From assembly GCA_051874735.1 (NCBI GenBank), contig JBJEGD010000022.1, forward strand, positions 52,216-116,215: DNA of 64,000 nt. The letters are read 5' to 3'. The notes beneath the pieces were generated by a model. That model did not search any database. It had not been told where the DNA came from and saw nothing but the letters and a program-made list of their open reading frames with translations. Positions 4,161-33,066 of the stretch are shown piece by piece. This DNA is from Candidatus Bruticola sp. GTDB lineage: Bacteria > Vulcanimicrobiota > Xenobia > Xenobiales > Xenobiaceae. The translations under genes and the position numbers were made by a program. Positions within the stretch are counted from its first letter, which is position 1; each line of letters opens with the position of its first letter.

Positions 4161-5690
4161 TCATCGAATTTTGGGCAAAGCTTTTAAACGATTATGAGAG
4201 ATAACCTGTAAAATCTGAGCTATTACAGCCTCAGAGGCTCGCGGCCTACCTAAATTTCCAGAAGCAACGGCCATCTTTTTAAGTTCATCCTCATCATTCA
4301 GGAGCGATAATAAGCTACCTGATAACTCAGATTCAATTTGATTGTCCAAAATCACTTTAGCTGCTCCATTCTTTTCCAGCACGCGAGCATTGGCTTCCTG
4401 ATGATTTTCAGCAGCATAAGGGTAAGGAACTAATATCGAAGGCAACTTTCGAGCCGTAACCTCCGCTAAAGTTGTAGCTCCGGCACGACATATAACTAAA
4501 TCGGCTGCACCGTAAACAGAAGCCATATCATCCGTATAGGCCATTGGTCGATAATCGATACGACGACCTGACACCAAATCGCCGCTGCGCGAGCTTATCT
4601 CATCAATATGTTTCTGTCCCGTTAAATGGATTAATGTCAAATCCATATCGAGTAAAGTTGGCAATAAAGCTAAAACAGCCTTATTCAAACTAGCAGCTCC
4701 CTGGCTGCCTCCAACTACGGCTACACATTTTCTCTCAGCAGGAATATTGAGCGCTTGTCTAGCCTCAGCGCGTCCTTTTAGTAAAATAGAGGTTCGCACC
4801 GGATTGCCAGTCATAACCAATTTTGAAGGTTCAACACCAGTATAATTACCGGGTAGCGAGACACAAACTCTTTGTGCGAAACTGGCAATTAGTTTAGCCG
4901 ATTTCCCCATAAAAGCGTTCTGCTCCATAAGCAAAATGGGTATATCTAAACAAGCAGCCGCCAACGACACTGGAACAGAAACATATCCGCCAGAAGCAAC
5001 TAAAATGTCAGGTTTGAAAACAAGAAGATGGTACAAACTTTCAAAGAAACCAAGGCCCATTTTACAAACAGCTATCAATTTATCTGACCAACTGCCGCTC
5101 AATCCCTGAGCGTGAATATTTCGCAAACGGAAGCCTAACCTTTCCGCTATGCTACGACCGACTCCCTTATAAGCATCGAAAAAGAGCGTCTGAACTCCCC
5201 CACCTCCCCGCATAACTTCCGCTACCGCCAAAGCAGGGTACAGATGTCCACCTGTGCCGCCTCCAGCGAAAGCAACCTTAAGCGGCTTAACTCCAACTTG
5301 AGCTTTAAATGGAAATACTGCTGCAGATGGATTGATAAAACCAGGATGCATAGCAATGCCTGGCCTTATAACAGCCTGGTTAGCCCCGATATAAGCGCTA
5401 TTAGCAACTTTTTGCTGTAAAGGAGTTTGACTACTAAGCGAAGGAGTGTTGACCGGAACAGACACCTCTAAACTAGAGGTGCTCGGTCTATCGGCATTCG
5501 AAGACACAACCTTACTGCCTAGCACCTCTGAAGAAGCAGACAACGCGGCCTGACGAGTACCAAAAGCCTTAGCAATAGTCTTTGCAACTTCCGGAGATAA
5601 CTTCAAAGGACGAACTGACGAACTAATTTTCTCATCGTTACTGAGAATTTGATCATCTTTATCTTTTGGCACAATTATCGCACCCCTCAA
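4161..5690 (-). CDS. murG: UDP-GlcNAc:lipid I GlcNAc transferase MurG (ORF carries ~140 aa S/T/P-rich N-terminal extension)
   Basis: G-loop KVAFAGGGTGGHLYPALAVAEV begins ~residue 140. C-terminal GT28 motifs (ICRAGATTLAE). Possible internal start at MHPGF. Confidence 0.85.
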   Translation of the reverse strand: MRGAIIVPKDKDDQILSNDEKISSSVRPLKLSPEVAKTIAKAFGTRQAALSASSEVLGSKVVSSNADRPSTSSLEVSVPVNTPSLSSQTPLQQKVANSAYIGANQAVIRPGIAMHPGFINPSAAVFPFKAQVGVKPLKVAFAGGGTGGHLYPALAVAEVMRGGGGVQTLFFDAYKGVGRSIAERLGFRLRNIHAQGLSGSWSDKLIAVCKMGLGFFESLYHLLVFKPDILVASGGYVSVPVSLAAACLDIPILLMEQNAFMGKSAKLIASFAQRVCVSLPGNYTGVEPSKLVMTGNPVRTSILLKGRAEARQALNIPAERKCVAVVGGSQGAASLNKAVLALLPTLLDMDLTLIHLTGQKHIDEISSRSGDLVSGRRIDYRPMAYTDDMASVYGAADLVICRAGATTLAEVTARKLPSILVPYPYAAENHQEANARVLEKNGAAKVILDNQIESELSGSLLSLLNDEDELKKMAVASGNLGRPRASEAVIAQILQVISHNRLKALPKIR

Positions 5691-15207: not shown

Positions 15208-15696
15208 TCAACGAGCAGATAACTTATCTTTTTTAGCCGGAGGATAGTAGAATACGCTTACTTTCTGGCCACTGCCTACTGAACTAAGCTGCACAATGTG
15301 AACTTTATCGGCTTGCGGAGACTCCATACCCAGCAGCTTAGCTTGCTCAGAGATTCTTTTCAGCGAAGACAACTCTTCGACTTGAAGCGCAACTTTATTT
15401 TTCTGTTTATCAAGGGCGGCTAATTTATGCTGAGCTCTGTCCAATTCATATTGAACTTCAACGAGCCCAGCGTATTGGAGTGTCAGTAAAAAGACCAGCA
15501 TCACTACGATAGAGAAAACGCATAAGCACCAAACTTTGGGAAGTACAGCTAATTTGGGGAGGTCATTCTTAACCTGAGCGGAGATTTCACTTAGTTCGTC
15601 TACAGACCGAACAGTTCTTCTCCTAAGCTGCTTAGCCCATTCTGGCGGGGTGGGCAAATGTTCTACCGACCTACGGACACCAAATTGAGACATCAA
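15208..15696 (-). CDS. ftsL: Putative cell division protein FtsL (single TM + coiled coil)
   Basis: Small bitopic protein between rsmH and ftsI. TM VWCLCVFSIVVMLVFLL followed by coiled-coil segment. Confidence 0.5.
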   Translation of the reverse strand: MMSQFGVRRSVEHLPTPPEWAKQLRRRTVRSVDELSEISAQVKNDLPKLAVLPKVWCLCVFSIVVMLVFLLTLQYAGLVEVQYELDRAQHKLAALDKQKNKVALQVEELSSLKRISEQAKLLGMESPQADKVHIVQLSSVGSGQKVSVFYYPPAKKDKLSAR

Positions 15697-15760
15697 CTTT
15701 TCCTTTCTCTATTGCACTAAAAAAAGACTTGCGAAAATCTGCTCTGACTGAAGCTGTTAT

Positions 15761-16750
15761 CTATATCCGCTCAGCAGCACGAAGCTTAGCTGAACGGGAA
15801 CGAGGATTATCTTTTAACTCATCGTCACTTGGAAGCAACGGCTTTTTAGTTATTTCTCGTAGAACAGCCTTGGCGCCGCAAGTGCATATAGGGGCAAGAG
15901 GCGGACAAACACACCGTCCTAATCCGCTTTTAAACGCAGACTTTACAATTCGATCTTCTAAGGAATGGTAACTAATTATGACCGCTCGTCCGCCATGATT
16001 CAGTAGCTCGAGAGCACTCGCAACGCCTCTCTCCAAGACAAAAAGCTCATCATTCACCGCAATTCGCAATGCCTGGAAGGTTCTGGTAGCAGGATGAATT
16101 ATCCTGCCCTTAGGATTTGAAGATTTTGTGGGGTTAGGCACTGTTCTGGAAATGAGATTGGCTAGTTCAAAAGTTGTTTCAATTGGCTTAACAGTGCGTT
16201 CTCTAACGATCGCTGCTGCAATTCGACCAGCGTAACGCTCCTCTCCCCAGCGACTTATGATATTTTTTAGCTCTTCACAAGAGGCGCCATTTACTAAATC
16301 GGCAGCGCTAATCGTCTCTGAATTACTATTCGCCATCCGCATATCAAGTTTTCCGTTGTTTTTAAAAGAAAAACCACGCCAAGGAGCATCTAACTGGTGG
16401 GAAGACACGCCTAAATCCATGAGAATACCATCTATGCTAACTACTCCAACTTGAGCAAGTATCTCCTTTAGATCAGAAAAGTTACCTTGCAAAACGGAAA
16501 AGCTAACTTTCTGACCAGCTTGGCCTTCTAAAACTCCGCTGTCTTTGATGACACGTCCAGCTTCCAACAAAGCCTCAGGATCCTGATCTATAGATAGCAA
16601 CCGACCGCCTCCCAATTCTCTGAGCCGCTTTAAAATAGCCAGAGTATGTCCTCCCCCTCCGAGAGTTGCATCTACATATGTATGACCATTTTTTATATTT
16701 AATAAATCGATAACTTCCGATAAAAGCACCGGAACATGATATTTTTTCAT
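15761..16750 (-). CDS. rsmH: 16S rRNA (cytosine1402-N4)-methyltransferase RsmH/MraW
   Basis: HVPVLLSEV N-terminus, SAM-binding DATLGGGGH, conserved C-terminal region. Confidence 0.9.
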   Translation of the reverse strand: MKKYHVPVLLSEVIDLLNIKNGHTYVDATLGGGGHTLAILKRLRELGGGRLLSIDQDPEALLEAGRVIKDSGVLEGQAGQKVSFSVLQGNFSDLKEILAQVGVVSIDGILMDLGVSSHQLDAPWRGFSFKNNGKLDMRMANSNSETISAADLVNGASCEELKNIISRWGEERYAGRIAAAIVRERTVKPIETTFELANLISRTVPNPTKSSNPKGRIIHPATRTFQALRIAVNDELFVLERGVASALELLNHGGRAVIISYHSLEDRIVKSAFKSGLGRCVCPPLAPICTCGAKAVLREITKKPLLPSDDELKDNPRSRSAKLRAAERI

Positions 16751-17004
16751 AGATCTACAATCGAATTATTCGATAACTCCACAGCACTTTGTTTTATTCT
16801 AGAACTGAACGGAACAAACGATACGGCACAGCCAATAGGGAAGCGAATAGTAACATGAGCTGCCGGTTCAACGTGTTCGCCGCCAAAACGGCGATCTGTA
16901 ACTCGGTGCCACTTATTATTTAGCACTCCCATTTGAGCTAGGATCGGAAACACATTGCTCTTATCATTAAAAAAAAGCTCAACACTCATATCGTTTGCCT
17001 CCAA
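16747..17004 (-). CDS. Small hypothetical protein at MraZ position (possible degenerate/truncated MraZ)
   Basis: Occupies the slot upstream of rsmH and overlaps it by 4 nt. Only ~80 aa; the ATG is at codon 6 and the track start is TTG. Weak G-x-L-N-N-K-W resemblance to the MraZ C-terminal motif. No DxxGR motif seen. Confidence 0.25.
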   Translation of the reverse strand: MEANDMSVELFFNDKSNVFPILAQMGVLNNKWHRVTDRRFGGEHVEPAAHVTIRFPIGCAVSFVPFSSRIKQSAVELSNNSIVDL

Positions 17005-17631
17005 TCTTTATTATCAAGGAGCCTGCCTCGAATTTAAACAACGCTGTGATCGCAACTATTTATTGAATATACAATATTTGTTAACGCGCCCAGAACTTGA
17101 TGTCTTTAAAGATGATTTCATGTTTACGCTGACTTTGATACTATTCATCGAGATAACTTAAGTCAATTTATTAAATATAGTTTTTATCATTTTCTATGAA
17201 TATATCTTTTACAGCATAAAAACTATATACAGATTATTAAATCAAATATTTAGTATAAAAATCTAAATATTTTTGCATTAAAAAAGCACTATTTTTATCC
17301 CAACCTATTAAAAAAATTCTATTTATAAGAAGAAAAAAAACATGGTTACAGACAATAAAATCTTAACGATAACGCACCAGCAAATTATTTTCGTGAATTG
17401 GTAGAAATTTAAAAATTTCAATCAAATTTCGTATGAAATGCAAAAAAAAGCTTTAAAACCCTGAACAAATGGCAGGTTAGCCTTATACTGAAGAAGAACC
17501 CCACCGCCCCCGGCTAAATAGGATAGTTCGCTATGCGCTTCTGCACTCCGAAGAGCAGACCCGGACTGGGAAAGATAAAAAGATCCCGTCAGTTCATAAG
17601 CCGAAGATAATTTTTTTTGGAGTGATCTTCC

Positions 17632-19014
17632 TTGAAGCGCTATGTAATAGTGGGAGGCGGAGCAGCCGGTCTAACCTTAGCTTATTATTTATGTAAAGCT
17701 GGACTGCCTACTGTAGTAATAGAAAGAGAAAGTAATGTAGGCGGTTTATCGCGCACTTTTCATTACGGTGACTGGTCTTTTGACATAGGCCCTCACCGTT
17801 TCTATTCACAAAATCCTAAAGTAAACCGATTTTTAAAAGAAGTTCAGGGAGACGGCTTTGCAGAGATACCCAGATTTTCTCAAGTGTACTTTATGGGTAA
17901 GTACCATGAATGGCCGCTGCGCTTGGAAACTATAGCCAAGCTTCCTCCCAACGTAGCTTTGCAGGCCGGCCTGGACATGTTCTTTAGAACAGGACGAAGT
18001 AACCGCAGTTCCAGCAATACTTTTAAAGATTATGTACTCTGTCGCTACGGCAAGACTTTATACGAAACTTTCTTTAAAGATTACACTGAGAAATTTGTGG
18101 GAATTTCTACAGAGAACACCCACCGCAATTGGGCAAAAATAGGGCTGGAACGAGCAACTATCGACGATAATGTCAACACAGCCTCTCTATTCGAGATATT
18201 CAAACTGATGCTGCTGCCTAAAAAAGCAGAGCTCAATTTTCTTTACCCTAATTCAGGTGGTATTTGTTCGTTTTGGGAAAACTGTCAACGCCGCATAATA
18301 GATATGGGCGGTGAAATTATCACTCAAAGCGAAGTATCCGCCTTAATATATAGCGTAACCGATAATGGCCTGAACGAAATTAGCGAAGTCGTTACCACAA
18401 AAGGAAAAATAGAGTGTCAGGAGTTAGCTTGGAGTGCTTCCATCAATGAACTGGCTAATAAACTTAATTTAACGCCTACACAATTAGATTATAGATCGCA
18501 AATTATATGTTCAGTAATGTTGGATAAGCCCCCTAAACACCGCTCACAGTGGTGTTATTTCGGAGACAAGAATCTATTATTTTCTCGTATATCAAATCCA
18601 TCATGCTTCAGCCCGAGCTGCGCTCCTCAAGGACGAGGGGGGCTGTGCTTGGAAATAACCTGTCAATATCAAGATGATATGTGGCACGACCCGGAAAAAC
18701 TCATTCCCCGTCTCATAGAGGAGCTTCATCAAGTTGGCGTCATTAACGACAGCATCAAAGTTCTGGACGCTCGAGTTGAAAAAATTAGGGATGCTTATCC
18801 TATTTACAGTCTTAATTACATTGACAGACTCAATCTTTTAGACAAAGAGTGCAGTGCTTTCAAAAATTTAGAATTATTAGGACGTACTGGTCGTTTCTGG
18901 TATAACAATTTAGACCATTCTATAGAAAATTCTTTAAGCACAGCTGCCAAATATTTAAAAAAGCTACATAATTTATCAGCGAAGGCGGAATCTGTTATGG
19001 AGGAAGTTTCATAG
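17632..19014 (+). CDS. FAD-dependent oxidoreductase (amine-oxidase / protoporphyrinogen-oxidase-like fold)
   Basis: N-terminal dinucleotide-binding YVIVGGGAAGLTLAYYL...VIERESNVGG. TTG start with GGAG upstream. Confidence 0.7.
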   Translation: MKRYVIVGGGAAGLTLAYYLCKAGLPTVVIERESNVGGLSRTFHYGDWSFDIGPHRFYSQNPKVNRFLKEVQGDGFAEIPRFSQVYFMGKYHEWPLRLETIAKLPPNVALQAGLDMFFRTGRSNRSSSNTFKDYVLCRYGKTLYETFFKDYTEKFVGISTENTHRNWAKIGLERATIDDNVNTASLFEIFKLMLLPKKAELNFLYPNSGGICSFWENCQRRIIDMGGEIITQSEVSALIYSVTDNGLNEISEVVTTKGKIECQELAWSASINELANKLNLTPTQLDYRSQIICSVMLDKPPKHRSQWCYFGDKNLLFSRISNPSCFSPSCAPQGRGGLCLEITCQYQDDMWHDPEKLIPRLIEELHQVGVINDSIKVLDARVEKIRDAYPIYSLNYIDRLNLLDKECSAFKNLELLGRTGRFWYNNLDHSIENSLSTAAKYLKKLHNLSAKAESVMEEVS

Positions 19015-19260
19015 CAGCACCCAAATTGGGCAGCAGGACGGTTCGAGCCGGTTTGGGCGCCGTGGTGTCCTTCGACAGTTCTGAATGCGCTAACAATCAG
19101 CTTTGAACTTCCCGTAGAATTACAATATATCATCAAAGTTGAATTTATCAAATTTAGGAAAGGGGAGTTGGTCTTCCATCAGGGCTGTCTGTCTTCTGAG
19201 AGTAAATAACCAGAGCGGCTGAGCCCACATTGTGGAAGATCAATTTGCAGCGCACGCAGA

Positions 19261-21342
19261 ATGTCTAATATCTTAAAGAACGGATGGCCTATTCCGAGGT
19301 TTGATTTAGCGCTGGGCATTACCGATATTCAGTGGCTCATCGGTGAAATCAGTAATGCTAGAGATAGTGAAATTGAAAAGTTTGAAAACAAGTTTGCCGA
19401 GTTTCTAGGCGTAAAAAAAGCCATTTACATGAACTCTGCCCGCGGAGCTCTCTATTTGATATTGCAATGTCTCAATTTAGCTCCGCATTCTAAAGTAATT
19501 ATCCCTGCTTGGACACATCATTCTATACCTTCGGTTATTATTGCTGCCGGTCTCCAGCCTCATTTGGTCGATATTCGTGAAGGCAGCTGGGTTATGGGGC
19601 CAGAAACTATAAGCGATGAGGACTGGGAAGGCGTTTCTGCCGTTATTATAACTCACATGTACGGATGTCCGGCCCCCGTAGAAGAGCTCACAGCCATTGC
19701 CAGAAGTAAAAACATCGTAGTCATTGAAGATTGCGCCCAAGGTTTTGGGGCCTCCGTAAACGGGAAAAAAGTCGGCACTTTTGGTGATGCAGCTATATTT
19801 TCTTTCGCTCTTACTAAAAACTTCACCACTTTGGGTGGAGGAATGGCAGTTTTTCAAAATCCGCACTTGGCAGAAGTTGCCTCCTTGCGCATGGAAGATT
19901 CGTATATTACCCCCAGTTCTTCCATATATCCTAAAATCTTCAAAGCAGCTGCTATGTGGGCAGGCACCACAACGTTAGGCTTTACTTTAAGCGCTTATGT
20001 TTTCCTTAGTGTCGGTTGGTCGTTTTTAGGTAAAGATACGCTGCATAGCATGTTCGAAGACAGCATTAACACAAATGCTCCTGATATCAGTGCTAAGCCT
20101 TCGCCAGTTCAAGCGGCTCTAGGCAGACGTCTGCTAGAATGGGCTGACGAGCAAAACAAGCAACGCACCCAAAACGGTAAAAAATTAATAGAACTTTTCC
20201 AGCAGGCCAAACTGCCAGGATTAGTAATTCCCAAATATCCTTCCTACGGAGAGTCAGTCTTCACTTCGTTTGTTGTCGGCCACATAGAAAACGAAAAACT
20301 GGCTCGTCAACTTTCAAGTCACAGCGTTGATACTTCTCCGGGATATTTAAAACCAGTTCAGCAAATACCCATGTTTTCTGAGTCGGTGAGTTATACCAGT
20401 AAACTAACAACCAGCAACTTGTTAGCCCGCACTCAACTCCATTTGCCCATATATCCTCGCCTAAAAGACGAAGATCTGGAGCGCATCGTCAAAGGATGTC
20501 GCTATTCACTCGACACCATTCTTCACTATGGAGGGAATAAAGAGTTTAATCTACCTGTAGTGAAAGAAGAGAAACCGCATGACGTACTTTACCATGGCAG
20601 CGATCCGCTTGCTGCCGATTACTCCCCTAAACGCATAAAACCTGAAAAAACTTCGCATTATTTGGGAGCTGACGAATCGTTGTCGACCAGACGCTCTTCG
20701 GCAGAATCTCAAGCGGTGGAACCGGATGCGAGTTCCAATTTACAATCTGACCGTCCATCCACATCTACTTTTTCTGCACATTCTTCTCCAGTTCAGCAAT
20801 CATTTGCGCCCCCATCTAACAATTTAGCCGCTTCTACAGTAACTTCTTTAACAGACAAACAGTCGGCGGCCGTCCCGCCTAAGCATCCAGCGGCTCCGCC
20901 ACTGCCTCCTTCAGCGCTGGGGAAGTCAGCTGCTATCCCGCCCAGTCGCCCAGCAGCTACGCCACTGCCCCCATCAGCGGCCGGAAAGTCCGCTACTGTC
21001 CCGCCCAGCCGTCCGACAGCTCCGCCGCTACCTCCATCAGCAACTGGACGGTCAACTCCACCCCAGCTCAATCGCCCAACAGCTCCTCCTTTGCCTCCTT
21101 CAGCATCCGGACGCCTTGCCACGTTACCTAATTCTGGTGCAGGACGCCCAGTTACACCAACATCATCTGGCACGGATCGTCTTTCAGCTGCTCCTACTCA
21201 CTCTCGCCCGGTGGCCTCTTCAGTAGCTAAAAACATTTTGGCTCTGCGCAAGAGTCCAACCTTCAGCGGTTCGGCCGGTGCTGAGACAGCCAATAAAGCC
21301 CATACCTCGGCTTCAGATGGCAGTGACAATAGAGCAAAGTAA
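19261..21342 (+). CDS. DegT/DnrJ/EryC1/StrS-family PLP-dependent sugar aminotransferase fused to C-terminal Pro-rich tandem-repeat tail
   Basis: Residues 1-~420 align to the DegT family (ITHMYGCPAPVEEL...IEDCAQGFGAS...FSFALTKN). Residues ~470-620 are repeats of the form RPxAPPLPPSAxGKSA. Confidence 0.8.
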   Translation: MSNILKNGWPIPRFDLALGITDIQWLIGEISNARDSEIEKFENKFAEFLGVKKAIYMNSARGALYLILQCLNLAPHSKVIIPAWTHHSIPSVIIAAGLQPHLVDIREGSWVMGPETISDEDWEGVSAVIITHMYGCPAPVEELTAIARSKNIVVIEDCAQGFGASVNGKKVGTFGDAAIFSFALTKNFTTLGGGMAVFQNPHLAEVASLRMEDSYITPSSSIYPKIFKAAAMWAGTTTLGFTLSAYVFLSVGWSFLGKDTLHSMFEDSINTNAPDISAKPSPVQAALGRRLLEWADEQNKQRTQNGKKLIELFQQAKLPGLVIPKYPSYGESVFTSFVVGHIENEKLARQLSSHSVDTSPGYLKPVQQIPMFSESVSYTSKLTTSNLLARTQLHLPIYPRLKDEDLERIVKGCRYSLDTILHYGGNKEFNLPVVKEEKPHDVLYHGSDPLAADYSPKRIKPEKTSHYLGADESLSTRRSSAESQAVEPDASSNLQSDRPSTSTFSAHSSPVQQSFAPPSNNLAASTVTSLTDKQSAAVPPKHPAAPPLPPSALGKSAAIPPSRPAATPLPPSAAGKSATVPPSRPTAPPLPPSATGRSTPPQLNRPTAPPLPPSASGRLATLPNSGAGRPVTPTSSGTDRLSAAPTHSRPVASSVAKNILALRKSPTFSGSAGAETANKAHTSASDGSDNRAK
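20872..21135 (+). repeat. ~63-bp imperfect tandem repeat (about 4 copies) encoding PPSRPxAPPLPPSAxGKSAxx
   Basis: Repeated ccgcc(c)agtcgcccagcagctac/gccgctgcc(t)cc(a)tcagc units, directly visible in the DNA. Confidence 0.7.
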
Positions 21343-21449
21343 GGCAAAAGCTAGCAGAAGCTGTTCGTCGTAACGGCGTTTTTAGGTCTGCTTCAGCTTT
21401 AGCCTAAATTTACTTATAAAGGTTAATTTACAATTAGGCAAAAAACGAT

Positions 21450-22484
21450 ATGAAATTTATAACTATGGCCAAAGCAGGAGCGGCCGTTCTGAAAGGACGA
21501 CTCAGCGGTTCGCCTCGCCCTATTTTCGCTACTATAGCAACCAACAACACTTGCCAGTCTCGCTGTCATTACTGCAAAATTCCGGCCAGGAAACAACCGG
21601 AGTTGACTACAGAACAAATAAAAACCTTAATTAAACAAATGGCGGAATTCGGTATCCAGCGTTTAGGTATCTGGGGAGGCGAACCTCTGCTGCGCAGCGA
21701 TATTGAAGAGCTGGTAGCTCACGCCAAGCATTTCGGTTTATATACAACTTTAGACACAAACGGATATCTTGTTCCTCAGAAAAAGTCTCTGCTAAAAGAA
21801 CTGGATCATATAATAATCTCGTTAGACGGTCCAGAAGAGGCTCACGATGCTAACCGAGAACCTGGATCGTTTCTTAAAGCTATGGCCGCAGTAGAAACTG
21901 CCGCGGCTAGTCAAGTCGCTCTTTGGACAATTACCGTACTTACATCTAATAATATTCACCAAGTAGACTGGATACTAGATCAGGCTGATAAATACAAATT
22001 TACTCCTACATTCCAAGTTCTGCATCACAGCGAATATTTTGGTTTGAACAATCCCCTGCGCCCTTCCGACCAAGAATATAAGCAATGCCTTCTCTATTTG
22101 AAAGAAGCTAAATTAAAAGGACGCAGGATTGGCAACTCTATTCAATGCTTAGATCATTTACTGAATTGGTCCTCTTTCAGCCAAAATACTTCTATAGAAG
22201 GAGGGCTAGGCTGGAGTCATTGCTGGGCCGGGCGTTTTTATTTAAACATAGACGCCGACGGACGGCTCTATCCTTGTTCCCTTCTTATAGGCGACAAATT
22301 GGGGCCGAGTGCTCTAGAACTAGGCTTTGCAGAAGCAGCGGCCCAGGTTAGCCGTTATCCCCTACCTTGCCAAAGTTGTTCAGCAACTTGCTTTACAGAA
22401 TACAATCTGCTCTTCTCTCTTAATCATCATACTATCATGCAGTGGGTCATGGCTATGGGCAGCAAACTGCATAAAAGCAAATAG
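21450..22484 (+). CDS. Radical SAM protein with C-terminal SPASM/twitch-like Cys cluster
   Basis: CQSRCHYC (Cx3Cx2C) near N-terminus, GGEPLL glycine motif, C-terminal CQSCSATC. Confidence 0.75.
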   Translation: MKFITMAKAGAAVLKGRLSGSPRPIFATIATNNTCQSRCHYCKIPARKQPELTTEQIKTLIKQMAEFGIQRLGIWGGEPLLRSDIEELVAHAKHFGLYTTLDTNGYLVPQKKSLLKELDHIIISLDGPEEAHDANREPGSFLKAMAAVETAAASQVALWTITVLTSNNIHQVDWILDQADKYKFTPTFQVLHHSEYFGLNNPLRPSDQEYKQCLLYLKEAKLKGRRIGNSIQCLDHLLNWSSFSQNTSIEGGLGWSHCWAGRFYLNIDADGRLYPCSLLIGDKLGPSALELGFAEAAAQVSRYPLPCQSCSATCFTEYNLLFSLNHHTIMQWVMAMGSKLHKSK

Positions 22485-22546
22485 TTACCTATATATATCT
22501 TGATCAATTATGCTCATTACGGCGATCTTTAATTGTAGGAAATTTT

Positions 22547-24007
22547 ATGAAGGTACTTTTAATTAACCCACCGCGCGATAACAGCATTTCTTCAGAAGTC
22601 CCCACCACAGTCAACGCCGAAACTAATACTATTCCCCCATTAGGATTGATGTATTTAGAGGCTCATTTACACAAGTACTCTAATAATTCAGAAGTGCGCA
22701 TCGTAGATTGTCTGGCTGATCACCTACACATAGATCAGCTGCGCAGAATTGTAGCTGATTATCAGCCCCAAATTGTAGGTGTCACCGGACACACACACGA
22801 TTTAATTGATATGATGCAAACTTCCCAAATGGCTAAAGAAGAACTAGGAAGTAAAGTCAAAATATTTTGGGGAGGGCCACACGTTTCCGACTTTCCTACT
22901 CAATCTATGAAATACAGCTGTGTAGACGGGTGTATTCCTTTTGAAGGTGAAGAGGCTTTTACAGAGGTTGTAACTGCTCATGCTGCGGCTTGGAATGACC
23001 AATCGGGCTACGACAATAAAACTTTGGCTGATTATCTGCAAAAAATAGAAGGCATATATTTTAAAAATGAACAGCAGCAGGTCGTACAGACGCCGACTCG
23101 TCGTCCCATCAGCGATTTAGATCTTCTCCCCTTTCCCCGACGTGAAATTTTAGACTATCGCAAATACAGTTATGTACTTGGCAGTGAAGCAGTGGCAACT
23201 TCTCTACTAACTAGCCGGGGATGTCCCTACAAATGTTCCTTTTGCAACACTCCAGGACGTACAACTTGGAGATGGCGCAGTGCTGGATCGGTAGTTGATG
23301 AGTTAGAAAAATGCGCGGAATTGGGAGTAAGTGAGGTGTACATCGTCGATGACACTTTCAATGTGCGCCAAGATCGAGTATTGGCCATATGCAATGAAAT
23401 TCAGAAACGCTCTATAAAAGTAAACTGGAATATCAGAGCCAGAGCCAACTGCATTACACCTGAAACAGTTAAAGCTATGCGCCGTGCAGGGTGTACCAGA
23501 GTCCATATCGGAGTAGAATCAGGTACCGATGAAGGGATGAAAGCACTTAATAAAAATTTGACAACTGCTAAAGTCCGCCAAGCTTTTAAAATGCTCACAG
23601 ACGAAGGTTTGGCTACTGTCTGCTACTTTATGATAGGCTGCCCTCACGACAGTTCTCTAGATGAAATAAACAAAACTATCAATTTTGCTATCGATCTAGA
23701 TCCAGACTATGCCCTATTTGGCATTTTAACTCCTTATCCCAACACATTAGTTTACAATCAAGGCATAGAAAAAGGCATACTCGATCCTAATCATTGGGAG
23801 CAATTCCTGGCTAATCCTTATCCAGATTTTAAGCCACAGGTTTGGACAGAATTTTTTAGCGCAGCCGAGCTAAGTACTTTATGTGATCAAGCCTTTAAAC
23901 GCTTCTATCTGCGTCCTAAACAGATGTTCCGCAAGCTTCTAGAGCTGAAGAATTTCCACGACATGGCCCGCAAATTAAAAGCAGGCTGGGAGATTTTGAA
24001 ATTATGA
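22547..24007 (+). CDS. B12-binding-domain radical SAM protein
   Basis: N-terminal Rossmann-like B12-binding-type domain, then CPYKCSFC (Cx3Cx2C). Confidence 0.75.
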   Translation: MKVLLINPPRDNSISSEVPTTVNAETNTIPPLGLMYLEAHLHKYSNNSEVRIVDCLADHLHIDQLRRIVADYQPQIVGVTGHTHDLIDMMQTSQMAKEELGSKVKIFWGGPHVSDFPTQSMKYSCVDGCIPFEGEEAFTEVVTAHAAAWNDQSGYDNKTLADYLQKIEGIYFKNEQQQVVQTPTRRPISDLDLLPFPRREILDYRKYSYVLGSEAVATSLLTSRGCPYKCSFCNTPGRTTWRWRSAGSVVDELEKCAELGVSEVYIVDDTFNVRQDRVLAICNEIQKRSIKVNWNIRARANCITPETVKAMRRAGCTRVHIGVESGTDEGMKALNKNLTTAKVRQAFKMLTDEGLATVCYFMIGCPHDSSLDEINKTINFAIDLDPDYALFGILTPYPNTLVYNQGIEKGILDPNHWEQFLANPYPDFKPQVWTEFFSAAELSTLCDQAFKRFYLRPKQMFRKLLELKNFHDMARKLKAGWEILKL

Positions 24008-25182
24008 GAAACCCTTGGCCAGTCCTTAAAGCTATTTTAGGTGGGGATACCCCTATTTACGTACACTTTGGCTTAACTCACCGATGCAACTTAACTTGCG
24101 CCATGTGCGGTTTATGGCAAAAGGGCGATAAAAATGAAGAGCTAAGTTTAGAGCAGATAAAGGCTGCTGCTAACAATTTTCGCAAACTAGGCACTGTAGC
24201 CATATCTTTAGGAGGCGGAGAGCCTTTTTTGCGACCGGATCTACCCAAAATTGTGGCAGCTTTCATACGCAACGGTATTGAAACGCGAGTTCTTACCAAT
24301 GCCTTGGCCGGTTCAACTGATATGCACGAAGCTGTAGCTGCTGCCGGTCTGCGCCATATTTCCATCTCCCTAGATACTCCTAACCCTGCAATACAGAGTG
24401 AGATTTGCCACAAGCCAGAAATTTGGGAAAAAATTATTGACAGAATTCGCTTTTGGTCTTCATACATCCAGAAACGTTCTGGAACAGGCTTAATCAACTG
24501 TGTAGTTTCAGCGCGAAACATAAACGATATTCCTAAAATGGCAGCTATTGCCCAAGCTTATAACTTTTATCTGTCTCTGGTGCCTTTAGAAAGACACAGC
24601 TATCAAGGTGAAATACTCAGCTGTTCTCCTGATTCAGAAGAAATGCGCTTTGCCAGCCAAGATGAAGAAAAACTAAACAGCCTCTGGGAATATTTATATA
24701 AACTAAAGAAGCAGCCTAATTCTCCTATTTTCAACTCCATGCCTTATATAAAGGCCATGATTCAATTTTTAAAATACGGCTGCCGAAACGACTCTTCAGA
24801 GACCTCTAATTTGCTTAGCCATAATTTTTGGGGAACTGGACTTGACTGTCAGACGGGTAGCTTAAGCTTTTCAGTCAGTCCCAGCGGCCGCTATTCTATG
24901 TGCCACTTTCAAGATGAGGCTCCGGAAGAGCATCCCAAAGTTTATGAAGATAGTTTTATAAACTGGTACAAGCATAAGCGCGATCTGTCCAAAATAAAAA
25001 AGTTGCGCCGCAGCTGCCTGGCTTGTTTTCGTCCCTGCTGGTGGGAGATAGCCTTAACTATGCATAAATATCCAGCCTTTATGAATGCTCTTCAATTGAC
25101 CTTTCGCCGCATTCCTAGTCAGAAACGTCCATCGCCTTCAGAATTAGTAGAAACTATAAAAAAGGTTCCCCCACTATGTTAG
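24004..25182 (+). CDS. Radical SAM / SPASM-domain protein
   Basis: CNLTCAMC Cx3Cx2C, GGGEPFL. C-terminal CLACFRPCWW auxiliary cluster motif. 4-nt overlap with the upstream gene. Confidence 0.75.
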   Translation: MRNPWPVLKAILGGDTPIYVHFGLTHRCNLTCAMCGLWQKGDKNEELSLEQIKAAANNFRKLGTVAISLGGGEPFLRPDLPKIVAAFIRNGIETRVLTNALAGSTDMHEAVAAAGLRHISISLDTPNPAIQSEICHKPEIWEKIIDRIRFWSSYIQKRSGTGLINCVVSARNINDIPKMAAIAQAYNFYLSLVPLERHSYQGEILSCSPDSEEMRFASQDEEKLNSLWEYLYKLKKQPNSPIFNSMPYIKAMIQFLKYGCRNDSSETSNLLSHNFWGTGLDCQTGSLSFSVSPSGRYSMCHFQDEAPEEHPKVYEDSFINWYKHKRDLSKIKKLRRSCLACFRPCWWEIALTMHKYPAFMNALQLTFRRIPSQKRPSPSELVETIKKVPPLC

Positions 25183-26882
25183 ATACATCCGTTCAAAATA
25201 TGCAAAATAACTGCAGAGAACAAATAGATTCCGCTCCTGGAGCTTCACCTGGTTCAGCTGAAGCGGTCTTTAATCCAGCCGTCGGTTCCCCGGAGCAGAA
25301 TCTTCATGCCCCTTGGGCGCCCAAATCCGGCTGGTATGGTGAGGCTAAAGATTTCAGTGTCGTCTTAATAGCTATGTACAGCGTAGAGAATGCCGGTCTA
25401 CGCTACTTATCGGCAGCTCTTCGTCGCGCAGGCTTCAAAGTAAATCTAATTTTTTTGCGGGATTGGGTCAACAACAAATTAGAAATGCCTTCCGCTGAAG
25501 AACTTGAACTCGTATTTGATATTATTGCTGAAAAAAAAGCTAATTTTGTAGGTATAGGTTTTATTTCTAGCCTACTTTCTATGGCAGAAAAACTTACCGT
25601 ACGCTTAAGAGAACGTTTTCCCCATCTGCCTATCTGCTGGGGGGGAATTCATGTTACGGCAGTGCCTGAAGGGGCTCTCGATTACGCCGACTATCTCTGT
25701 CTTGGAGAGGGAGAAGCTCCCTTAATTGATCTGTGTGAAGCGCTGTATAATAACCAGTTTACTGGAAATATTTTCAATATTTGGGCAAAGCTTAACGGAA
25801 AAATTTTCAAAAATGAAATGCGTCCGCTCATAGCTAATTTAGACGAGCTTCCTTATCCAGACGTAGACGACTTTAACAAATTTTATATCGAAGATAAAAC
25901 TATACACAACGAAGAACCTTGGAAAAGAACGGCCGAGTATCGAATATATTGTTCTAGAGGCTGCCCTTACAATTGCTCTTACTGTTATGTATCTATCCTA
26001 CGCGAAAAATTTGCTGCGGACAAACAGAAGTTTTACCGTCTTCGTTCAGTTGAGCATATACTTGGTGAACTGGAATATATAAAAGCTCATTTTCCACGCT
26101 TGGCTAGAGTAAAAATAGATGATGATACTGCTTTTGCGGCCCCAGCTGCATGGGTAGATGAGTTCTGTACAAAATATCCACAACGCATTAATTTGCCCTT
26201 TGAATGCATGCTTATACCGCCCATGCTGAAACGTCCTTTCTTAGAAAAACTTCAAAAAGCCGGATTAGTTCGCTTGCAAACTGGCATTGAAAGCGGCTCG
26301 CCTCAAGAAAGTTTATCTGTGCACAATAGAGTGCCAGGCAATAATAATATTTTAGCTTTTTCTAAATTTAATAGAGAATTACGTATAAATGCAGTTTACG
26401 ACCTGATTATCGACAATCCATGGGCTTCAGAATCGATGAAATTAGAAACTGCTCAATTTTTATTAGAACTGGAGCGCCCTTACGACATTTACTTTTATTC
26501 GCTAAATTATTTCCCAGGTACAGCCATTACCAAACGTCTTTTAGCAGAAGGACGCATTGATGCAACTCAAGTAGAAGGTCTTAACAACAAAGCTTGGAAA
26601 CAGTTCCGGGTTTCTATGGACTGGCCGCGCAGTCCCGAAGATCGCTTTTACTTGTCGATCTATTGTTTAGCCTCTAAAACGTTTATACCCAAAGCCTTTA
26701 TCCGCTTTCTGCTCAAACATCGCCAATATTTTAAACACCACTGGCAGGTTCCCTTTATTTTAGCTTGGGCTGCAAATTTCTTAAAAATGGGAGCAGTTGC
26801 CTGGCGTTATCTGATCAACGGCGAATTGACCTGGTTCAAAATCAGACAATACGGCGATTTACGCAAACTAATCAGCCAATAA
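25176..26882 (+). CDS. B12-binding-domain radical SAM protein
   Basis: CPYNCSYC Cx3Cx2C after an N-terminal B12-binding-like domain. Overlaps the upstream gene by 7 nt. Confidence 0.75.
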   Translation: MLDTSVQNMQNNCREQIDSAPGASPGSAEAVFNPAVGSPEQNLHAPWAPKSGWYGEAKDFSVVLIAMYSVENAGLRYLSAALRRAGFKVNLIFLRDWVNNKLEMPSAEELELVFDIIAEKKANFVGIGFISSLLSMAEKLTVRLRERFPHLPICWGGIHVTAVPEGALDYADYLCLGEGEAPLIDLCEALYNNQFTGNIFNIWAKLNGKIFKNEMRPLIANLDELPYPDVDDFNKFYIEDKTIHNEEPWKRTAEYRIYCSRGCPYNCSYCYVSILREKFAADKQKFYRLRSVEHILGELEYIKAHFPRLARVKIDDDTAFAAPAAWVDEFCTKYPQRINLPFECMLIPPMLKRPFLEKLQKAGLVRLQTGIESGSPQESLSVHNRVPGNNNILAFSKFNRELRINAVYDLIIDNPWASESMKLETAQFLLELERPYDIYFYSLNYFPGTAITKRLLAEGRIDATQVEGLNNKAWKQFRVSMDWPRSPEDRFYLSIYCLASKTFIPKAFIRFLLKHRQYFKHHWQVPFILAWAANFLKMGAVAWRYLINGELTWFKIRQYGDLRKLISQ

Positions 26883-27703: not shown

Positions 27704-28009
27704 GTGTTTACTGATCGTACTTTAACCTGCTGCGACTGTGGCAACGATTTTGTTTTTACTGCCGGAGAGCAGGAGTTTTATGCCTCCAAAGGTTTTGCCA
27801 GCGATCCCCGCCGCTGTCCGGAGTGTCGTCGTATCCATAAACGAAACCGAGAAAATGGCGCATTAGGCCGTTCTAATGGTACGCGTGAAATGTTTGAAGT
27901 CATTTGTGCAGAATGCGGCCAAACTGCTAAAGTACCTTTCCGACCTCGCAATGATAAACCTATTTACTGCAGCGATTGTTTCAAAAAACACGGCGGCGCC
28001 CATCGCTAA
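27704..28009 (+). CDS. Small duplicated zinc-ribbon protein (zf-trcl-like)
   Basis: Two repeats of a CxxC...CxxC ribbon: LTCCDCGNDFVFTAGEQEFYASKGF...RCPECR and ICAECGQTAKVPF...YCSDCF. GTG start with GGAGGG RBS 7 nt upstream. Confidence 0.6.
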   Translation: MFTDRTLTCCDCGNDFVFTAGEQEFYASKGFASDPRRCPECRRIHKRNRENGALGRSNGTREMFEVICAECGQTAKVPFRPRNDKPIYCSDCFKKHGGAHR

Positions 28010-29244: not shown

Positions 29245-29748
29245 ATGCGTATAGTCACAGCTTTCAAAGCTTTTTTTAAAGCCCTGTTCGATGGTACTTT
29301 TGCTGAAAAGTTGTCCATTTTATTAGGAGAAAAAGCAGAGCAGCCCCAGTCATCAGTTAGCACCCCTTCAATGTATCCTGGTGCAGTCGGACTGCTAGCT
29401 CTGCTGCAGCGTGAAGGGCGGCTCATAGATTTTTTGCAAGAAAACCTAGATAACGTTCCTGAGGCGCAGATAGGCGCAGTCGTCAAATCTACTGTATATA
29501 AAGGATGCCGCAAAGCCCTTAAAGATTATCTGGAGCTAGAGCCAGTGCGCTCAGAAGAAGAAGGCTCCGAGATCACAGTAGATGAAGGTTTTGATCCCAA
29601 CAGCATCCGTTTAGTTGGCAAAGTTGAAGGGAACCCTCCATTTAAAGGCATCTTACGCCACCAAGGCTGGCGTCTTGTTAAAGCAAATCTTCCTCAAAGT
29701 ACCGATGATAATTCCGATATTATTTGTCCAGCCGAAGTAGAACTTTAA
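29245..29748 (+). CDS. DUF2760-like small protein (Hsp70-associated)
   Basis: Immediately upstream of a non-canonical Hsp70, 2-nt gap. Family call is from memory and not from a diagnostic motif. Confidence 0.35.
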   Translation: MRIVTAFKAFFKALFDGTFAEKLSILLGEKAEQPQSSVSTPSMYPGAVGLLALLQREGRLIDFLQENLDNVPEAQIGAVVKSTVYKGCRKALKDYLELEPVRSEEEGSEITVDEGFDPNSIRLVGKVEGNPPFKGILRHQGWRLVKANLPQSTDDNSDIICPAEVEL

Positions 29749-29749
29749 T

Positions 29750-31612
29750 TTGCAGAGGCTATATATTGAAAAAGTATTCCAGGAGAGAGAACATTTTATG
29801 ATTATAGGTATAGACTTAGGAACGACTAACTGCGCCGTAGCCTGGTCCGATCCGGATGCTATTTCATCAGAACAGAAAACCCGCAAAGAGACTCCACCTA
29901 TACACCATTTTGCTATTTCCCAACTGACTTATCCGGCCACCGTTGAACATCGCAGCACTTTGCCATCTTTTTTGTATTTTCCAGGCACTCACGAACTCCC
30001 CCCAGGTAGTCTAGAACTTCCTTGGGATAAAAACATTAACAGTGTTGTAGGCTACTTAGCTCGTGAGCAAGGAGCTAAAGTTCCTCATAGAGTTGTTTCT
30101 TCGGCAAAATCTTGGCTTTCCGGTGATCAGGCTGATCGCAATGCCCCAATTCTTCCCTGGAATGCCCCAGATGAAGTTGAGCACATTTCCCCTATAGACG
30201 CTTCATCTCGATACTTAGAACATTTGCGCTCTGCTTGGGATTTTGAACATCCAGAATGTCCTCTAGCTGAGCAACAAATTGTACTTACCGTCCCTGCTTC
30301 TTTTGATACTATTGCCAGAGAACTTACTGTTCAGGCAGCTCATAAAGCCGGCCTTACCAAACTTACCTTACTCGAAGAACCGCAAGCTGCTTTTTATGCC
30401 TGGTTGGACAACAGTGAAAAAGATTGGCGTTCGCAAGTTGCTGTGGGGGATAAAATATTAGTCTGTGACATCGGAGGAGGCACCACTGACTTTAGCCTTA
30501 TAAGCGTAACCAATCAAGATGGTAATTTATCCTTAGAACGCTCAGCAGTTGGAGACCATATTTTGTTAGGCGGAGACAATATGGATCTCACCCTAGCCGT
30601 CTGCTTGCAGCAAAAGCTTAAAGCTGAACGCAAAATTAAGCTCGACAGCTGGCAAATGCAAATACTAACCCATGCTTGCAGAACTGCCAAAGAGCAACTC
30701 CTACAAGAAGATGGCGAAGAAGAATGGAATGTGACTATTCCCGGACGAGGCAGCAGTCTTATTGCTTCCTCTATAACTGTTCCTCTGTCCAGACAACTTA
30801 CTGAACAGCTTATAGTAGATGGCTTTTTTCCGAAATGTTCCATAGAAGATCAAGCTGTCCGCTCTCGTCAAAGCGGTCTGCGCGAGTTAGGATTGCCCTT
30901 TGAGTCAGACCCAGCCGTCACTAAGCATTTAGCTCGTTTCTTAACAGTTAATAAACCTGAAGACAGTACAGTTCCATTCTTTGCACCTACAGCTATTTTA
31001 TTTAACGGAGGAGTATTGAAAGCTCCAATGTTGAGACGCCGCCTAACGGAAACTTTAAATAGTTGGCTCGCCTCTATTGGAGCACCGCCTGTAAAAGAAC
31101 TAGAAGGAGCTGATTACGATCTAGCCGTAGCCCGCGGCGCTGTACGCAGCGGTCTAGCTAGTCATGGAGCGGGCATAAGGATAAAAGCGGGTACTAACCG
31201 CTCGTACTACCTTGGCATTGAAACTTCTATGCCCGCTGTGCCAGGTCTTACTCCACCCATAAAAGCCCTCTGTACGGCTCCATTCGGCATGGAAGAAGAT
31301 TCTCGTGAGAAACTGCCGGGCAGAAGCTTTGGCCTAGTAGTTGGCGAGCCAGTCGAATTTCGTTTTCTTGCTTCAACCTGCCGTCAGCAAGATCAACTCG
31401 GCGATCTTATCGACGATTGGGAAGATGATATGGAAGAATTACCTCCCCTGCAGGTGACCTTGCCCGCCGAAATGGGTGAAGTTGGTAAAATTATCCCCGT
31501 TACTTTAGAAACTCATGTCACTGAAGTAGGCACTTTAGAAGTATGGTGTTGTCAAGAAAATGTTCCCAAATGGCGCTTAGAATTTGAAGTGCGTTCTTCC
31601 GGACGCTCCTAA
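29750..31612 (+). CDS. Hsp70-family protein (non-canonical, actin-like ATPase NBD)
   Basis: IIGIDLGTTNCAVAW phosphate-1 motif, DIGGGTTDFSLI phosphate-2 motif. C-terminal region not a canonical DnaK substrate-binding domain. Confidence 0.8.
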   Translation: MQRLYIEKVFQEREHFMIIGIDLGTTNCAVAWSDPDAISSEQKTRKETPPIHHFAISQLTYPATVEHRSTLPSFLYFPGTHELPPGSLELPWDKNINSVVGYLAREQGAKVPHRVVSSAKSWLSGDQADRNAPILPWNAPDEVEHISPIDASSRYLEHLRSAWDFEHPECPLAEQQIVLTVPASFDTIARELTVQAAHKAGLTKLTLLEEPQAAFYAWLDNSEKDWRSQVAVGDKILVCDIGGGTTDFSLISVTNQDGNLSLERSAVGDHILLGGDNMDLTLAVCLQQKLKAERKIKLDSWQMQILTHACRTAKEQLLQEDGEEEWNVTIPGRGSSLIASSITVPLSRQLTEQLIVDGFFPKCSIEDQAVRSRQSGLRELGLPFESDPAVTKHLARFLTVNKPEDSTVPFFAPTAILFNGGVLKAPMLRRRLTETLNSWLASIGAPPVKELEGADYDLAVARGAVRSGLASHGAGIRIKAGTNRSYYLGIETSMPAVPGLTPPIKALCTAPFGMEEDSREKLPGRSFGLVVGEPVEFRFLASTCRQQDQLGDLIDDWEDDMEELPPLQVTLPAEMGEVGKIIPVTLETHVTEVGTLEVWCCQENVPKWRLEFEVRSSGRS

Positions 31613-31962: not shown

Positions 31963-33066
31963 ATGATCCCTATTTTAGAACTTCGCACTCAGTACTCTCA
32001 AATTCAAGATGAATTAGAAGAGGCTGTACTGAAAGTTCTGCGCTCTACGGCCTACGTTCTAGGCCCCGAGGTAAAAGCTTTTGAAGAGGAGTTCGCCGCT
32101 TGGAACGGAGTTAAGCACGGTATCGGCGTAGGAAACGGCACAGATGCTCTACAGTTGGCAGTTAGGGCCCTAGATTTAAAAGCCGAAGATGAAGTAATCG
32201 TACCCTCGTTTACTTTTGTTGCCTCCGCCGGAGCTGTCGCTTTAGCCGGTTCTAAAGTAGTTTTCGCTGATATTGATCCCCATACTTTTTCTTTAGATCC
32301 CGAAAGTCTTAAAAAGGCTATAACTCCTCATACTAAAGCGGTAATCTGCGTTCACCTTTACGGACATGCAGCCGATATCAGTGCCATAAAGTCTATCTGC
32401 CAGGAACACAGCTTGGCTCTCATCGAGGACTGCGCTCAGGCCACAGGTGCTGAAATCAACGGACAAAAAGTTGGTGGATTCGGCGATATGAGCTGTTTTT
32501 CTTTCTTCCCCAGCAAAAATTTAGGTGGCATTGGCGATGGCGGCATGGTTTTGACAAATAGCGACAGCTACTTTGAAAAGATCAACATGTTGCGCGGTCA
32601 CGGCAGCAAAGTACGCTATTATCATGAAATTTTGGGTACTAACAGCCGTTTAGATGAAATTCAGGCTGCGGCTCTGCGCGTCAAACTCAGACACGTAAAC
32701 GAATGGAATATAAAAAGGCGCTCTGTAGCTCAAAAATATACAGAGGCCCTGCAAGGTATTGACGGTTTAATTACTCCTGTAGAGCGCGAGGGTTACCGTC
32801 ACGTTTTCCATCAATATACAATTCGTGCGCCTAAGCGGGACGAGCTCTTTGATTATATGCGTGCTCATGGAGTAGGCCCTGCTATTTACTACCCCGTCTG
32901 TCTCCACCTGCAAAAAACCTTTGCAGCTAGCGGAATGAAGGAGGGCTCTCTCCCCGTTTGTGAGCAGCTTCAAAAAGAAGTACTGTCTCTGCCTATGTTC
33001 CCTGAACTTACCGATGAACAAATCAACGCCGTGGTATCTTCAATTAAGAGTTTTTTCCGCGTATAG
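31963..33066 (+). CDS. DegT/DnrJ/EryC1/StrS-family sugar aminotransferase
   Basis: IPILELRTQYSQIQDEL...LGPEVKAFEEEFAAWNGVKHGIGVGNGTDAL. Lys-containing SFFPSKNLGG PLP motif. Confidence 0.85.
   Translation: MIPILELRTQYSQIQDELEEAVLKVLRSTAYVLGPEVKAFEEEFAAWNGVKHGIGVGNGTDALQLAVRALDLKAEDEVIVPSFTFVASAGAVALAGSKVVFADIDPHTFSLDPESLKKAITPHTKAVICVHLYGHAADISAIKSICQEHSLALIEDCAQATGAEINGQKVGGFGDMSCFSFFPSKNLGGIGDGGMVLTNSDSYFEKINMLRGHGSKVRYYHEILGTNSRLDEIQAAALRVKLRHVNEWNIKRRSVAQKYTEALQGIDGLITPVEREGYRHVFHQYTIRAPKRDELFDYMRAHGVGPAIYYPVCLHLQKTFAASGMKEGSLPVCEQLQKEVLSLPMFPELTDEQINAVVSSIKSFFRV

Follow-up and report, generated by a model that had tools for sequence, protein, structure and literature searches.

A disordered proline-rich tail under purifying selection on a DegT-fold protein of Candidatus Bruticola

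What role could a long proline-rich tail play on a pyridoxal phosphate (PLP)-dependent enzyme? The question is raised by a gene for a DegT-type aminotransferase (19261-21342, + strand) in a 64,000-nt stretch of DNA from Candidatus Bruticola sp. (assembly GCA_051874735.1, contig JBJEGD010000022.1, positions 52,216 to 116,215 of the forward strand), referred to here as the window. Candidatus Bruticola belongs to the class Xenobia of the Vulcanimicrobiota (formerly Eremiobacterota). The gene is an open reading frame (ORF) of 693 aa, a DegT-fold core followed by a disordered tail, and its product is identical to an NCBI protein from a metagenome-assembled genome annotated as Candidatus Bruticola. 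An initial annotation had compared the tail with ligands of eukaryotic SH3, EVH1, WW and profilin modules and with repeats of bacterial surface anchors, and had named a flexible tether and a cis-encoded substrate of adjacent radical S-adenosylmethionine (SAM) enzymes as alternatives.

The tail and its conservation

The tail comprises the last ~261 aa of the protein (433-693) and is rich in proline (16%), serine (17%), alanine (15%) and threonine (8%), while the core contains 5% proline; no cysteine or tryptophan is present in it. The initial annotation had placed its beginning at 20650, which lies inside the tail; the tail itself was confirmed, with a true start at ~20557. At the junction with the core, comparison of orthologues revealed a conserved proximal island, KEFNLPVVKEEKPHDVLY (aa 427-444; 20539-20592, +), and a semi-conserved acidic island, SHYLGADES (20653-20679, +; TYDI[DN]SDS in sister species), was read from the sequences. 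Four tandem repeats of 63 bp, each encoding 21 aa, follow at 20866-21117 (+), as determined by Tandem Repeats Finder and alignment: AAVPPKHPAAPPLPPSALGKS (20866-20928, +), AAIPPSRPAATPLPPSAAGKS (20929-20991, +), ATVPPSRPTAPPLPPSATGRS (20992-21054, +) and TPPQLNRPTAPPLPPSASGRL (21055-21117, +). Each unit has the core R-P-x-A-P-P-L-P and a variable spacer of alanine, serine, threonine and glycine. Thus, the repeats described initially are real and in frame. Next to the end of the protein lies a conserved 16-residue peptide, RPVASSVAKNILALRK (aa 649-664; 21205-21252, +), which shows conservative changes at three positions only, and the protein ends with a variable, polar, serine-rich stretch of 29 aa (21253-21339, +).

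Tandem Repeats Finder reported a 63-bp period at 20887-21041 (2.5 copies, 79% matches). The four units are in register at the protein level, and their DNA is 56-75% identical with differences mostly at third codon positions, indicating that the array is old and constrained at the protein level rather than a product of fresh slippage. The motif PPLP occurs three times in the tail vs. 0.08 times expected from composition-preserving shuffles of the tail. The peak proline content per 40 aa reaches 35% in the tail and at most 17% elsewhere among the 43 ORFs of the window; in the related loci (~260 open frames, ~240 kb) the segments with at least 25% proline are the DegT tails, plus two marginal exceptions. 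A glycine-rich antisense ORF of 126 aa lies opposite the repeats (20793-21173, -); it mirrors the proline codons and in all likelihood does not represent a gene.

All homologues with at least 51% core identity carry an in-frame C-terminal extension of 150-290 aa. In contrast, more than 100 more distant homologues are 380-450 aa long and tail-less, so that the fusion is as unusual as was first supposed, and specific to the lineage. The window itself encodes a second, canonical DegT aminotransferase (31963-33066, +; E 4e-120), which adjoins a heparinase II/III-like protein (33079-35340, +); this DegT protein has no tail, and the tail is thus specific to one paralogue. In a close group of eight species the elements follow one another in a fixed order from N to C: the proximal segment (consensus KEFxLPxVKxEKPHxVxY), the acidic island, the repeats, the 16-mer and the polar end. 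The array of these species consists of 1-7 units, with a unit length of 17, 18 or 21 aa depending on the species. Over 35 units from the eight species, conservation of the repeat core is 0.93 for R, 0.97 for P, 0.97 for A, 0.94 and 1.0 for the next two P, 1.0 for L and 0.78 for the last P; x and the spacers vary. More distant orthologues have proline-rich tails without PPLP.

The 16-residue peptide has the consensus RPVASSΦAKNILALRK, and its last nine residues, AKNILALRK, are identical in all eight species; their codons differ synonymously between the species with no amino-acid change. We scanned one genome per GTDB species with a degenerate DNA pattern for AKNILALRK. The pattern was found in a proline-rich context in seven GTDB species genomes, once in each and always in this DegT tail, and the remaining 32 matches were in unrelated chance contexts. 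Two readings of the nonapeptide were tried and rejected: its spacing does not fit a beta-clamp motif (QLxLF), and a membrane-targeting amphipathic helix would not be expected to be invariant on all of its faces.

Estimates of selection showed a ratio of nonsynonymous to synonymous substitution rates (dN/dS) of 0.005-0.05 for the core, which is among the most conserved genes of the locus and whose dS is at or near saturation, and of 0.07-0.37 for the alignable, non-repeat segments of the tail. Within clusters of 90% identity, protein lengths form ladders with steps of 18 aa (563, 581 ... 653) or 17 aa (545 ... 630) on almost identical cores, indicating that members of one species differ in repeat number and that the reading frame is kept throughout. 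The arrays of sister species have a 51- or 54-bp period and are 95% homogeneous. In the AlphaFold model the predicted local distance difference test score (pLDDT) is below 50 over nearly all of aa 447-693, and the one short helix there (aa 655-660, VAKNIL), of low confidence, lies inside the 16-mer. The tails of all tailed orthologues, non-alignable ones included, contain 14-33% proline; in most lineages they are basic (isoelectric point, pI, of 8.2-11.4; net charge of +1 to +12), while the core is acidic across the tailed orthologues (pI 6.1-6.8). Serine and threonine together make up 13-26% of the tail in most lineages and 8% in the orthologue P0017. These results show that the tail is disordered, basic in most lineages on an acidic core, under purifying selection and specific to this protein.

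Searches beyond the orthologues gave no relatives of the tail. Three tail fragments matched no Pfam family at E ≤ 10, WH2 included, and a PDB sequence search with the tail found nothing at the same threshold. A word-indexed search with the motif alignment yielded 224 candidates, none of them at E ≤ 10. An exhaustive phmmer search with aa 488-693 against 1.84 billion representatives returned no matches, not even the orthologues, probably due to composition filtering, and shows only that the tail is no widespread module. The literature on the gene cassette described below and on Xenobia contained nothing relevant to the tail. The related contigs were recovered from human gut metagenomes (Hadza, Nepali and others), and one species of the genus is derived from baboon; the tail arose once, in this gut-associated Xenobia lineage.

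Loss of the Schiff-base lysine and of the gene cassette

The core (aa 1-432; 19261-20556, +) has the fold of DegT/DnrJ/EryC1/StrS sugar aminotransferases, as supported by Pfam, AlphaFold, Foldseek and PDB sequence matches. It matched Pfam DegT_DnrJ_EryC1 (PF01041) with 214 bits vs. a cut-off of 19.8 (E 4.9e-63), and its pLDDT, averaged by block, starts at 80 over the first ten residues and is at least 84 up to aa ~420, mostly above 90. Foldseek comparisons with WecE, DesV, PerA and ArnB gave E ~1e-25 and target-normalised TM scores of 0.8-0.86, and the PDB sequence search retrieved sugar and inositol aminotransferases, with ColD and E1 among the matches. No NCBIfam assignment at the equivalog level was obtained for the protein, every match being far under the family cut-off. 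The PLP-site motifs are intact in the window protein, IEDCAQ (with D157) and SFALTK186NFTTLGGG, and the Schiff-base Lys186 is encoded by the AAA codon at 19816-19818 (+) in SFALTKNFTTLGGG.

The DegT gene occupies the second place in a cassette of six genes (17632-26882). It is preceded by a flavin adenine dinucleotide (FAD)/amine-oxidase-type oxidoreductase (17632-19014, +) and followed by radical SAM 1 (21450-22484, +), the B12-binding radical SAM 2 (22547-24007, +), radical SAM 3 (24004-25182, +) and the B12-binding radical SAM 4 (25176-26882, +). In the 107 bp that separate the DegT stop codon from radical SAM 1 lies a weak terminator-like hairpin (21366-21383, +; 5-bp stem, T5), which is not above regional chance, as the count of terminator-like sites does not exceed that of shuffled sequences. 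Several phyla share this cassette (it is also present in loci L053 and L054), in which two of the radical SAM enzymes are SPASM/MoaA-like and two are B12-binding, and its NCBIfam matches (HpnJ, BchE, AprD4 and PTO1314-type) are all far under the cut-offs. In other bacteria the same cassette contains a tail-less DegT and lies away from the division and cell wall (dcw) cluster, and the DegT and radical SAM 1 genes abut or overlap. In two proteins of 757 aa, P0023 and P0027, DegT is fused directly to an orthologue of radical SAM 1, 63% identical to that of the window over its full length, which indicates a physical partnership of DegT and radical SAM 1 in the cassette. The fusion junction, at DegT residue ~420, coincides with the start of the Xenobia tail.

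Lysine is found at position 186 in 58 of 62 aligned family members. It was replaced in four orthologue lineages, by serine in P0010 and P0015, by glutamine in P0011/12 and by asparagine in P0017/29, and each sampled cluster is uniform in its substitution. These proteins show further changes of the PLP pocket at family-conserved positions (A159T/S in three cases and F182L in two, with additional ones in P0017). At the corresponding loci (L052, L008/L019, L010 and L004), examined over ~±8 kb, the four radical SAM genes are absent in all four lineages and the oxidoreductase in three, and tblastn detected no cassette remnants there. The full cassette is present at all nine lysine-retaining loci. 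The coincidence of S, Q or N at position 186 with the loss of the pathway genes suggests that chemistry was lost rather than changed.

The tail was kept in all four of these lineages, and the invariant peptide in two. By a three-taxon decomposition of pairwise values, dN/dS was ~0.05 on the P0010 branch vs. ~0.04 on that of its lysine-retaining sister, and ~0.07 on the P0011 branch vs. ~0.03 on that of its lysine-retaining relatives. The absence of relaxation (~0.05-0.07) indicates that, in these two measured lineages, the proteins without Lys186 are not decaying, and their tail segments are constrained as elsewhere. The fold and the tail thus persist where the chemistry based on the lysine and the pathway genes of the locus have disappeared.

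Possible roles of the tail

We consider it somewhat more probable than not that the tail is a selectively maintained, disordered arm for docking or tethering, and that part of its role does not depend on transamination. Inside the bacterial cell the arm would act as a flexible, multivalent tether. Its basic repeats, of polyproline-II type, would determine its valency and how far it extends, and might attach to a partner protein or to an anionic surface, and the invariant 16-mer would serve as a specific docking site. In this way the arm may keep the DegT-fold dimer in place with respect to a partner, or gather it into clusters there, and such docking or scaffolding would be at least partly independent of transamination. 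A tether in general is supported by the disorder, the multivalency and the conserved terminal peptide, and the flexible tether named initially as an alternative fits the predicted disorder; a tether to cassette partners alone does not account for the keeping of the tail after their loss. The constant adjacency to the dcw cluster is only a hint to the partner.

Several observations weigh against a docking arm. The tails of P0015 and P0017, the two most distant, have composition alone in common and not the motifs, so that what is conserved may in part be a non-specific spacer or solubility property and not docking. In the AlphaFold model the invariant peptide is not docked on the core and its helix is of low confidence. 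The empty profile and phmmer searches allow no homology-based transfer of function. The repeat copy numbers rest on short-read assemblies, the cassette could sit elsewhere in the genomes that lack it at the locus, and the dN/dS values of the lysine-less lineages cover P0010 and P0011.

A bolder form of the docking arm would have the DegT protein exapted into a largely non-catalytic scaffold, in which the arm and its peptide recruit or space a component of the cell envelope or of division. We regard this as possible, though a good deal less probable. If true, the protein would be an intracellular bacterial counterpart of multivalent tethers of the FH1 or FtsZ-tail type, and exaptation would explain why the gene outlived both the catalytic lysine and the whole cassette.

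Two further explanations are rather unlikely, to a similar degree. In one of them the arm would hold DegT near radical SAM 1, other cassette enzymes or a membrane complex, in place of the direct fusion or translational coupling of relatives. The start of the tail does coincide with the point at which P0023 and P0027 continue into the radical SAM 1 orthologue, and in relatives that have no tail the DegT and radical SAM genes are adjacent or overlap. In addition, the core contains an inserted hydrophobic helical segment (aa 222-257; 19924-20031, +), seen in the AlphaFold model, which is common to all cassette-type DegT proteins and is not found in solved DegT structures of ~360-400 aa; its Kyte-Doolittle maximum of 1.44 is below the usual transmembrane threshold, and the segment possibly forms a patch that faces membrane or lipid. 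However, in the four lineages described above the tail persists at loci that contain neither radical SAM genes nor traces of them, and in three of these lineages the FAD oxidoreductase is missing there as well; the constraint on the tail in the two measured ones is unchanged.

In the other, the tail would be a disordered region without a partner, that is, an entropic spacer, a solubility tag or an autoregulator of the DegT dimer, possibly tuned by phosphorylation of serine and threonine. Such a region would be expected to keep composition and disorder, and mostly a net positive charge, while sequence and length drift, as is observed here, and the serine and threonine content of most tails and a Hanks-type kinase gene about 15 kb away would suit phosphorylation. 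There is also a precedent, since two reports describe the C-terminal linker (CTL) of FtsZ as an autoregulating disordered region (bioRxiv 10.1101/2022.06.29.498098; PMC9586301). On the other hand, nine consecutive residues are invariant on every face of the helix and the eight-residue repeat core is conserved despite saturated dS, which argues for specific recognition over bulk properties.

The likeness to eukaryotic ligands holds only in part. A mimic directed at the host, with PPLP repeats binding WW, SH3 or profilin modules and a WH2-like terminal LRK helix, would agree with the presence of the PPLP core in all close orthologues, with the origin of the organisms from primate and human gut metagenomes, and with the order of a polyproline array followed by a short helix and LRK, which superficially recalls FH1/WH2. 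PPLP, the core of group II WW ligands, is present three times in the window tail and 1-5 times in close orthologues, a match of low information at the level of a four-residue motif, and generic PxxP was confirmed. The canonical classes are absent: the window tail has no match to SH3 class I ([RK]xxPxxP) or class II (PxxPx[RK]), having bare PxxP only, and the other close orthologues tested have none except a single class I match in L008. There is no EVH1 motif ([FWYL]PxΦP) and no PPxY in the tail, and no proline run of at least five residues, as in profilin and FH1-type ligands, in the window tail or close orthologues. For WH2 (PF02205) there was no profile match at E ≤ 10, nor for any other family, and LRKS lies only one residue beyond the hydrophobic residues, in our reading far closer to the helix than in WH2. 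No hydrophobic, signal-like segment was seen at the N-terminus, MSNILKNGWPIPRFDL, by eye (no dedicated predictor was run). Moreover, the low dN/dS of the core would not be expected of a simple carrier, the gene neighbourhood is one of biosynthesis and of the cell wall, and the distant orthologues do without PPLP. Taken together, a host-directed function is very improbable.

The comparison with surface anchors fares no better. By eye, neither a signal-like segment nor LPXTG followed by a transmembrane segment at the C-terminus was seen, as would be expected of Gram-positive wall-spanning proteins such as PspA, M protein and ActA. A sortase-like LPNSG in the tail was rejected after reading of the sequences: it is not conserved among orthologues and no anchor follows it.

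Neutral slippage of a low-complexity sequence, or an assembly artefact, is just as improbable and has been largely refuted. Repeat number does vary, the arrays of sister species are highly homogeneous and short-read assemblers can mis-size such arrays. Nevertheless, dozens of contigs assembled independently from a large number of samples carry the tail in frame, and the orthologues, which the initial annotation had proposed to examine for this, keep it and vary in copy number; in addition, its dN/dS is below 0.4, the core of the 16-mer is invariant with synonymous variation, and the differences between the window repeat units are concentrated at third codon positions. Least probable of all is a RiPP-like (ribosomally synthesised and post-translationally modified peptide) role as a cis substrate of the adjacent radical SAM/SPASM-type enzymes, for although four radical SAM genes lie immediately downstream and radical SAM 1 and 3 score weakly against peptide-maturase families, all the NCBIfam matches are far under the cut-offs, the same cassette occurs in relatives without any tail, the tail has no Cys or Trp, and it does not depend on co-occurrence with a maturase, being kept in L004, L008/L019, L010 and L052 without radical SAM genes at the locus.

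Neighbouring genes and known systems

In the Xenobia group the cassette always lies divergently beside the dcw cluster (mraZ/mraW, ftsL, PBP, murE, murF, mraY onward); ftsZ and ftsA were both looked for up to ~7 kb past the window start and neither was found beside the cluster. MurG (4161-5690, -) has a serine-rich, low-complexity N-terminal extension of ~135 aa ahead of its GT28 domain; a motif in common between this extension and the DegT tail, DRPSTS, was rejected as chance (BLASTP E 0.14). A small double-CxxC zinc-ribbon protein is encoded between the cassette and Sua5 (27704-28009, +; Pfam zf_Tbcl in related loci), and its gene directly follows the tailed DegT where the cassette was lost (L004, L008, L052). 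Further downstream, a DUF2760 protein (29245-29748, +) is followed by an atypical Hsp70/MreB-like protein (29750-31612, +), and this pair occurs downstream of DegT in every related locus long enough to show it. Locus L051 encodes, downstream of the dcw cluster and ~13-16 kb past the window start, a protein that combines a Hanks-type Ser/Thr kinase with a periplasmic-binding-protein domain (15327-17777); this kinase might regulate the tails rich in Ser and Thr.

The closest parallel to a docking arm is FtsZ with its CTL and terminal peptide (CT17/CTC). In both proteins a folded enzyme core is followed by a variable disordered linker and a short, strongly conserved peptide, in FtsZ a docking site, and the DegT gene lies beside the dcw cluster. 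Disorder, variable length and an invariant peptide were thus all seen, without sequence homology; in our comparison NILALRK only loosely recalls IPxFLRK of FtsZ. According to one report, the length and composition of the FtsZ linker matter, and not its sequence (PMC9586301). Unlike this linker, that of DegT holds a conserved, repeated motif, and about 30-40 residues follow the DegT peptide.

Bacterial SSB has a proline-rich disordered linker with PxxP and a conserved C-terminal tip that recruits many partners. The DegT tail resembles it as a proline-rich, disordered linker bearing a short conserved peptide, with no sequence homology; the SSB tip is acidic and strictly C-terminal, whereas the DegT tail is basic, repetitive and carried on a PLP-fold protein. 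Tandem short proline-rich units with flexible spacers are likewise found in formin FH1 and in the WASP/VASP-binding repeats of ActA, and the PPLP core of ligands of group II WW domains and Abl SH3 is literally present. Unlike in these eukaryotic and effector arrays, the flanking consensus is not matched, there is no profilin-grade run and no WH2, and the context is that of a cytoplasmic enzyme.

The core shares its fold and the PLP-site motifs EDCAQ and SFxxxK with aminotransferases of the WecE, DesV, PerA, ArnB and BtrR type. It differs from DegT sugar aminotransferases in being ~60 aa longer, owing to the hydrophobic insertion, in its cassette with four radical SAM enzymes, in the tail of 150-290 aa and in the loss of the catalytic lysine in several species. 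Replacement of the Schiff-base lysine on a conserved fold is also seen in the pyridoxamine phosphate-dependent 3-dehydratases ColD and E1 and in PLP-fold pseudoenzymes. ColD and E1 carry His at this position; the orthologues described here have S, Q or N instead.

Disordered tails with short docking motifs are well known on bacterial hubs such as FtsZ and SSB and have rarely been documented on metabolic enzymes. Two defined bait peptides, RPxAPPLP and RPVASSΦAKNILALRK, are now at hand for the DegT tail. Our results also call for caution, as a PxxP-rich bacterial sequence is no evidence of host mimicry. The main interest of the locus lies not in its PxxP content but in the retention of the tail through the correlated loss of lysine and cassette. 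In several species a natural experiment has taken place, in which the tailed protein outlives its catalytic lysine and its operon partners, and the DegT-fold protein is turning into a pseudoenzyme in some of them. As far as can be judged from sequence, this retention points to a probable second, non-enzymatic function in uncultured Vulcanimicrobiota of the primate gut.

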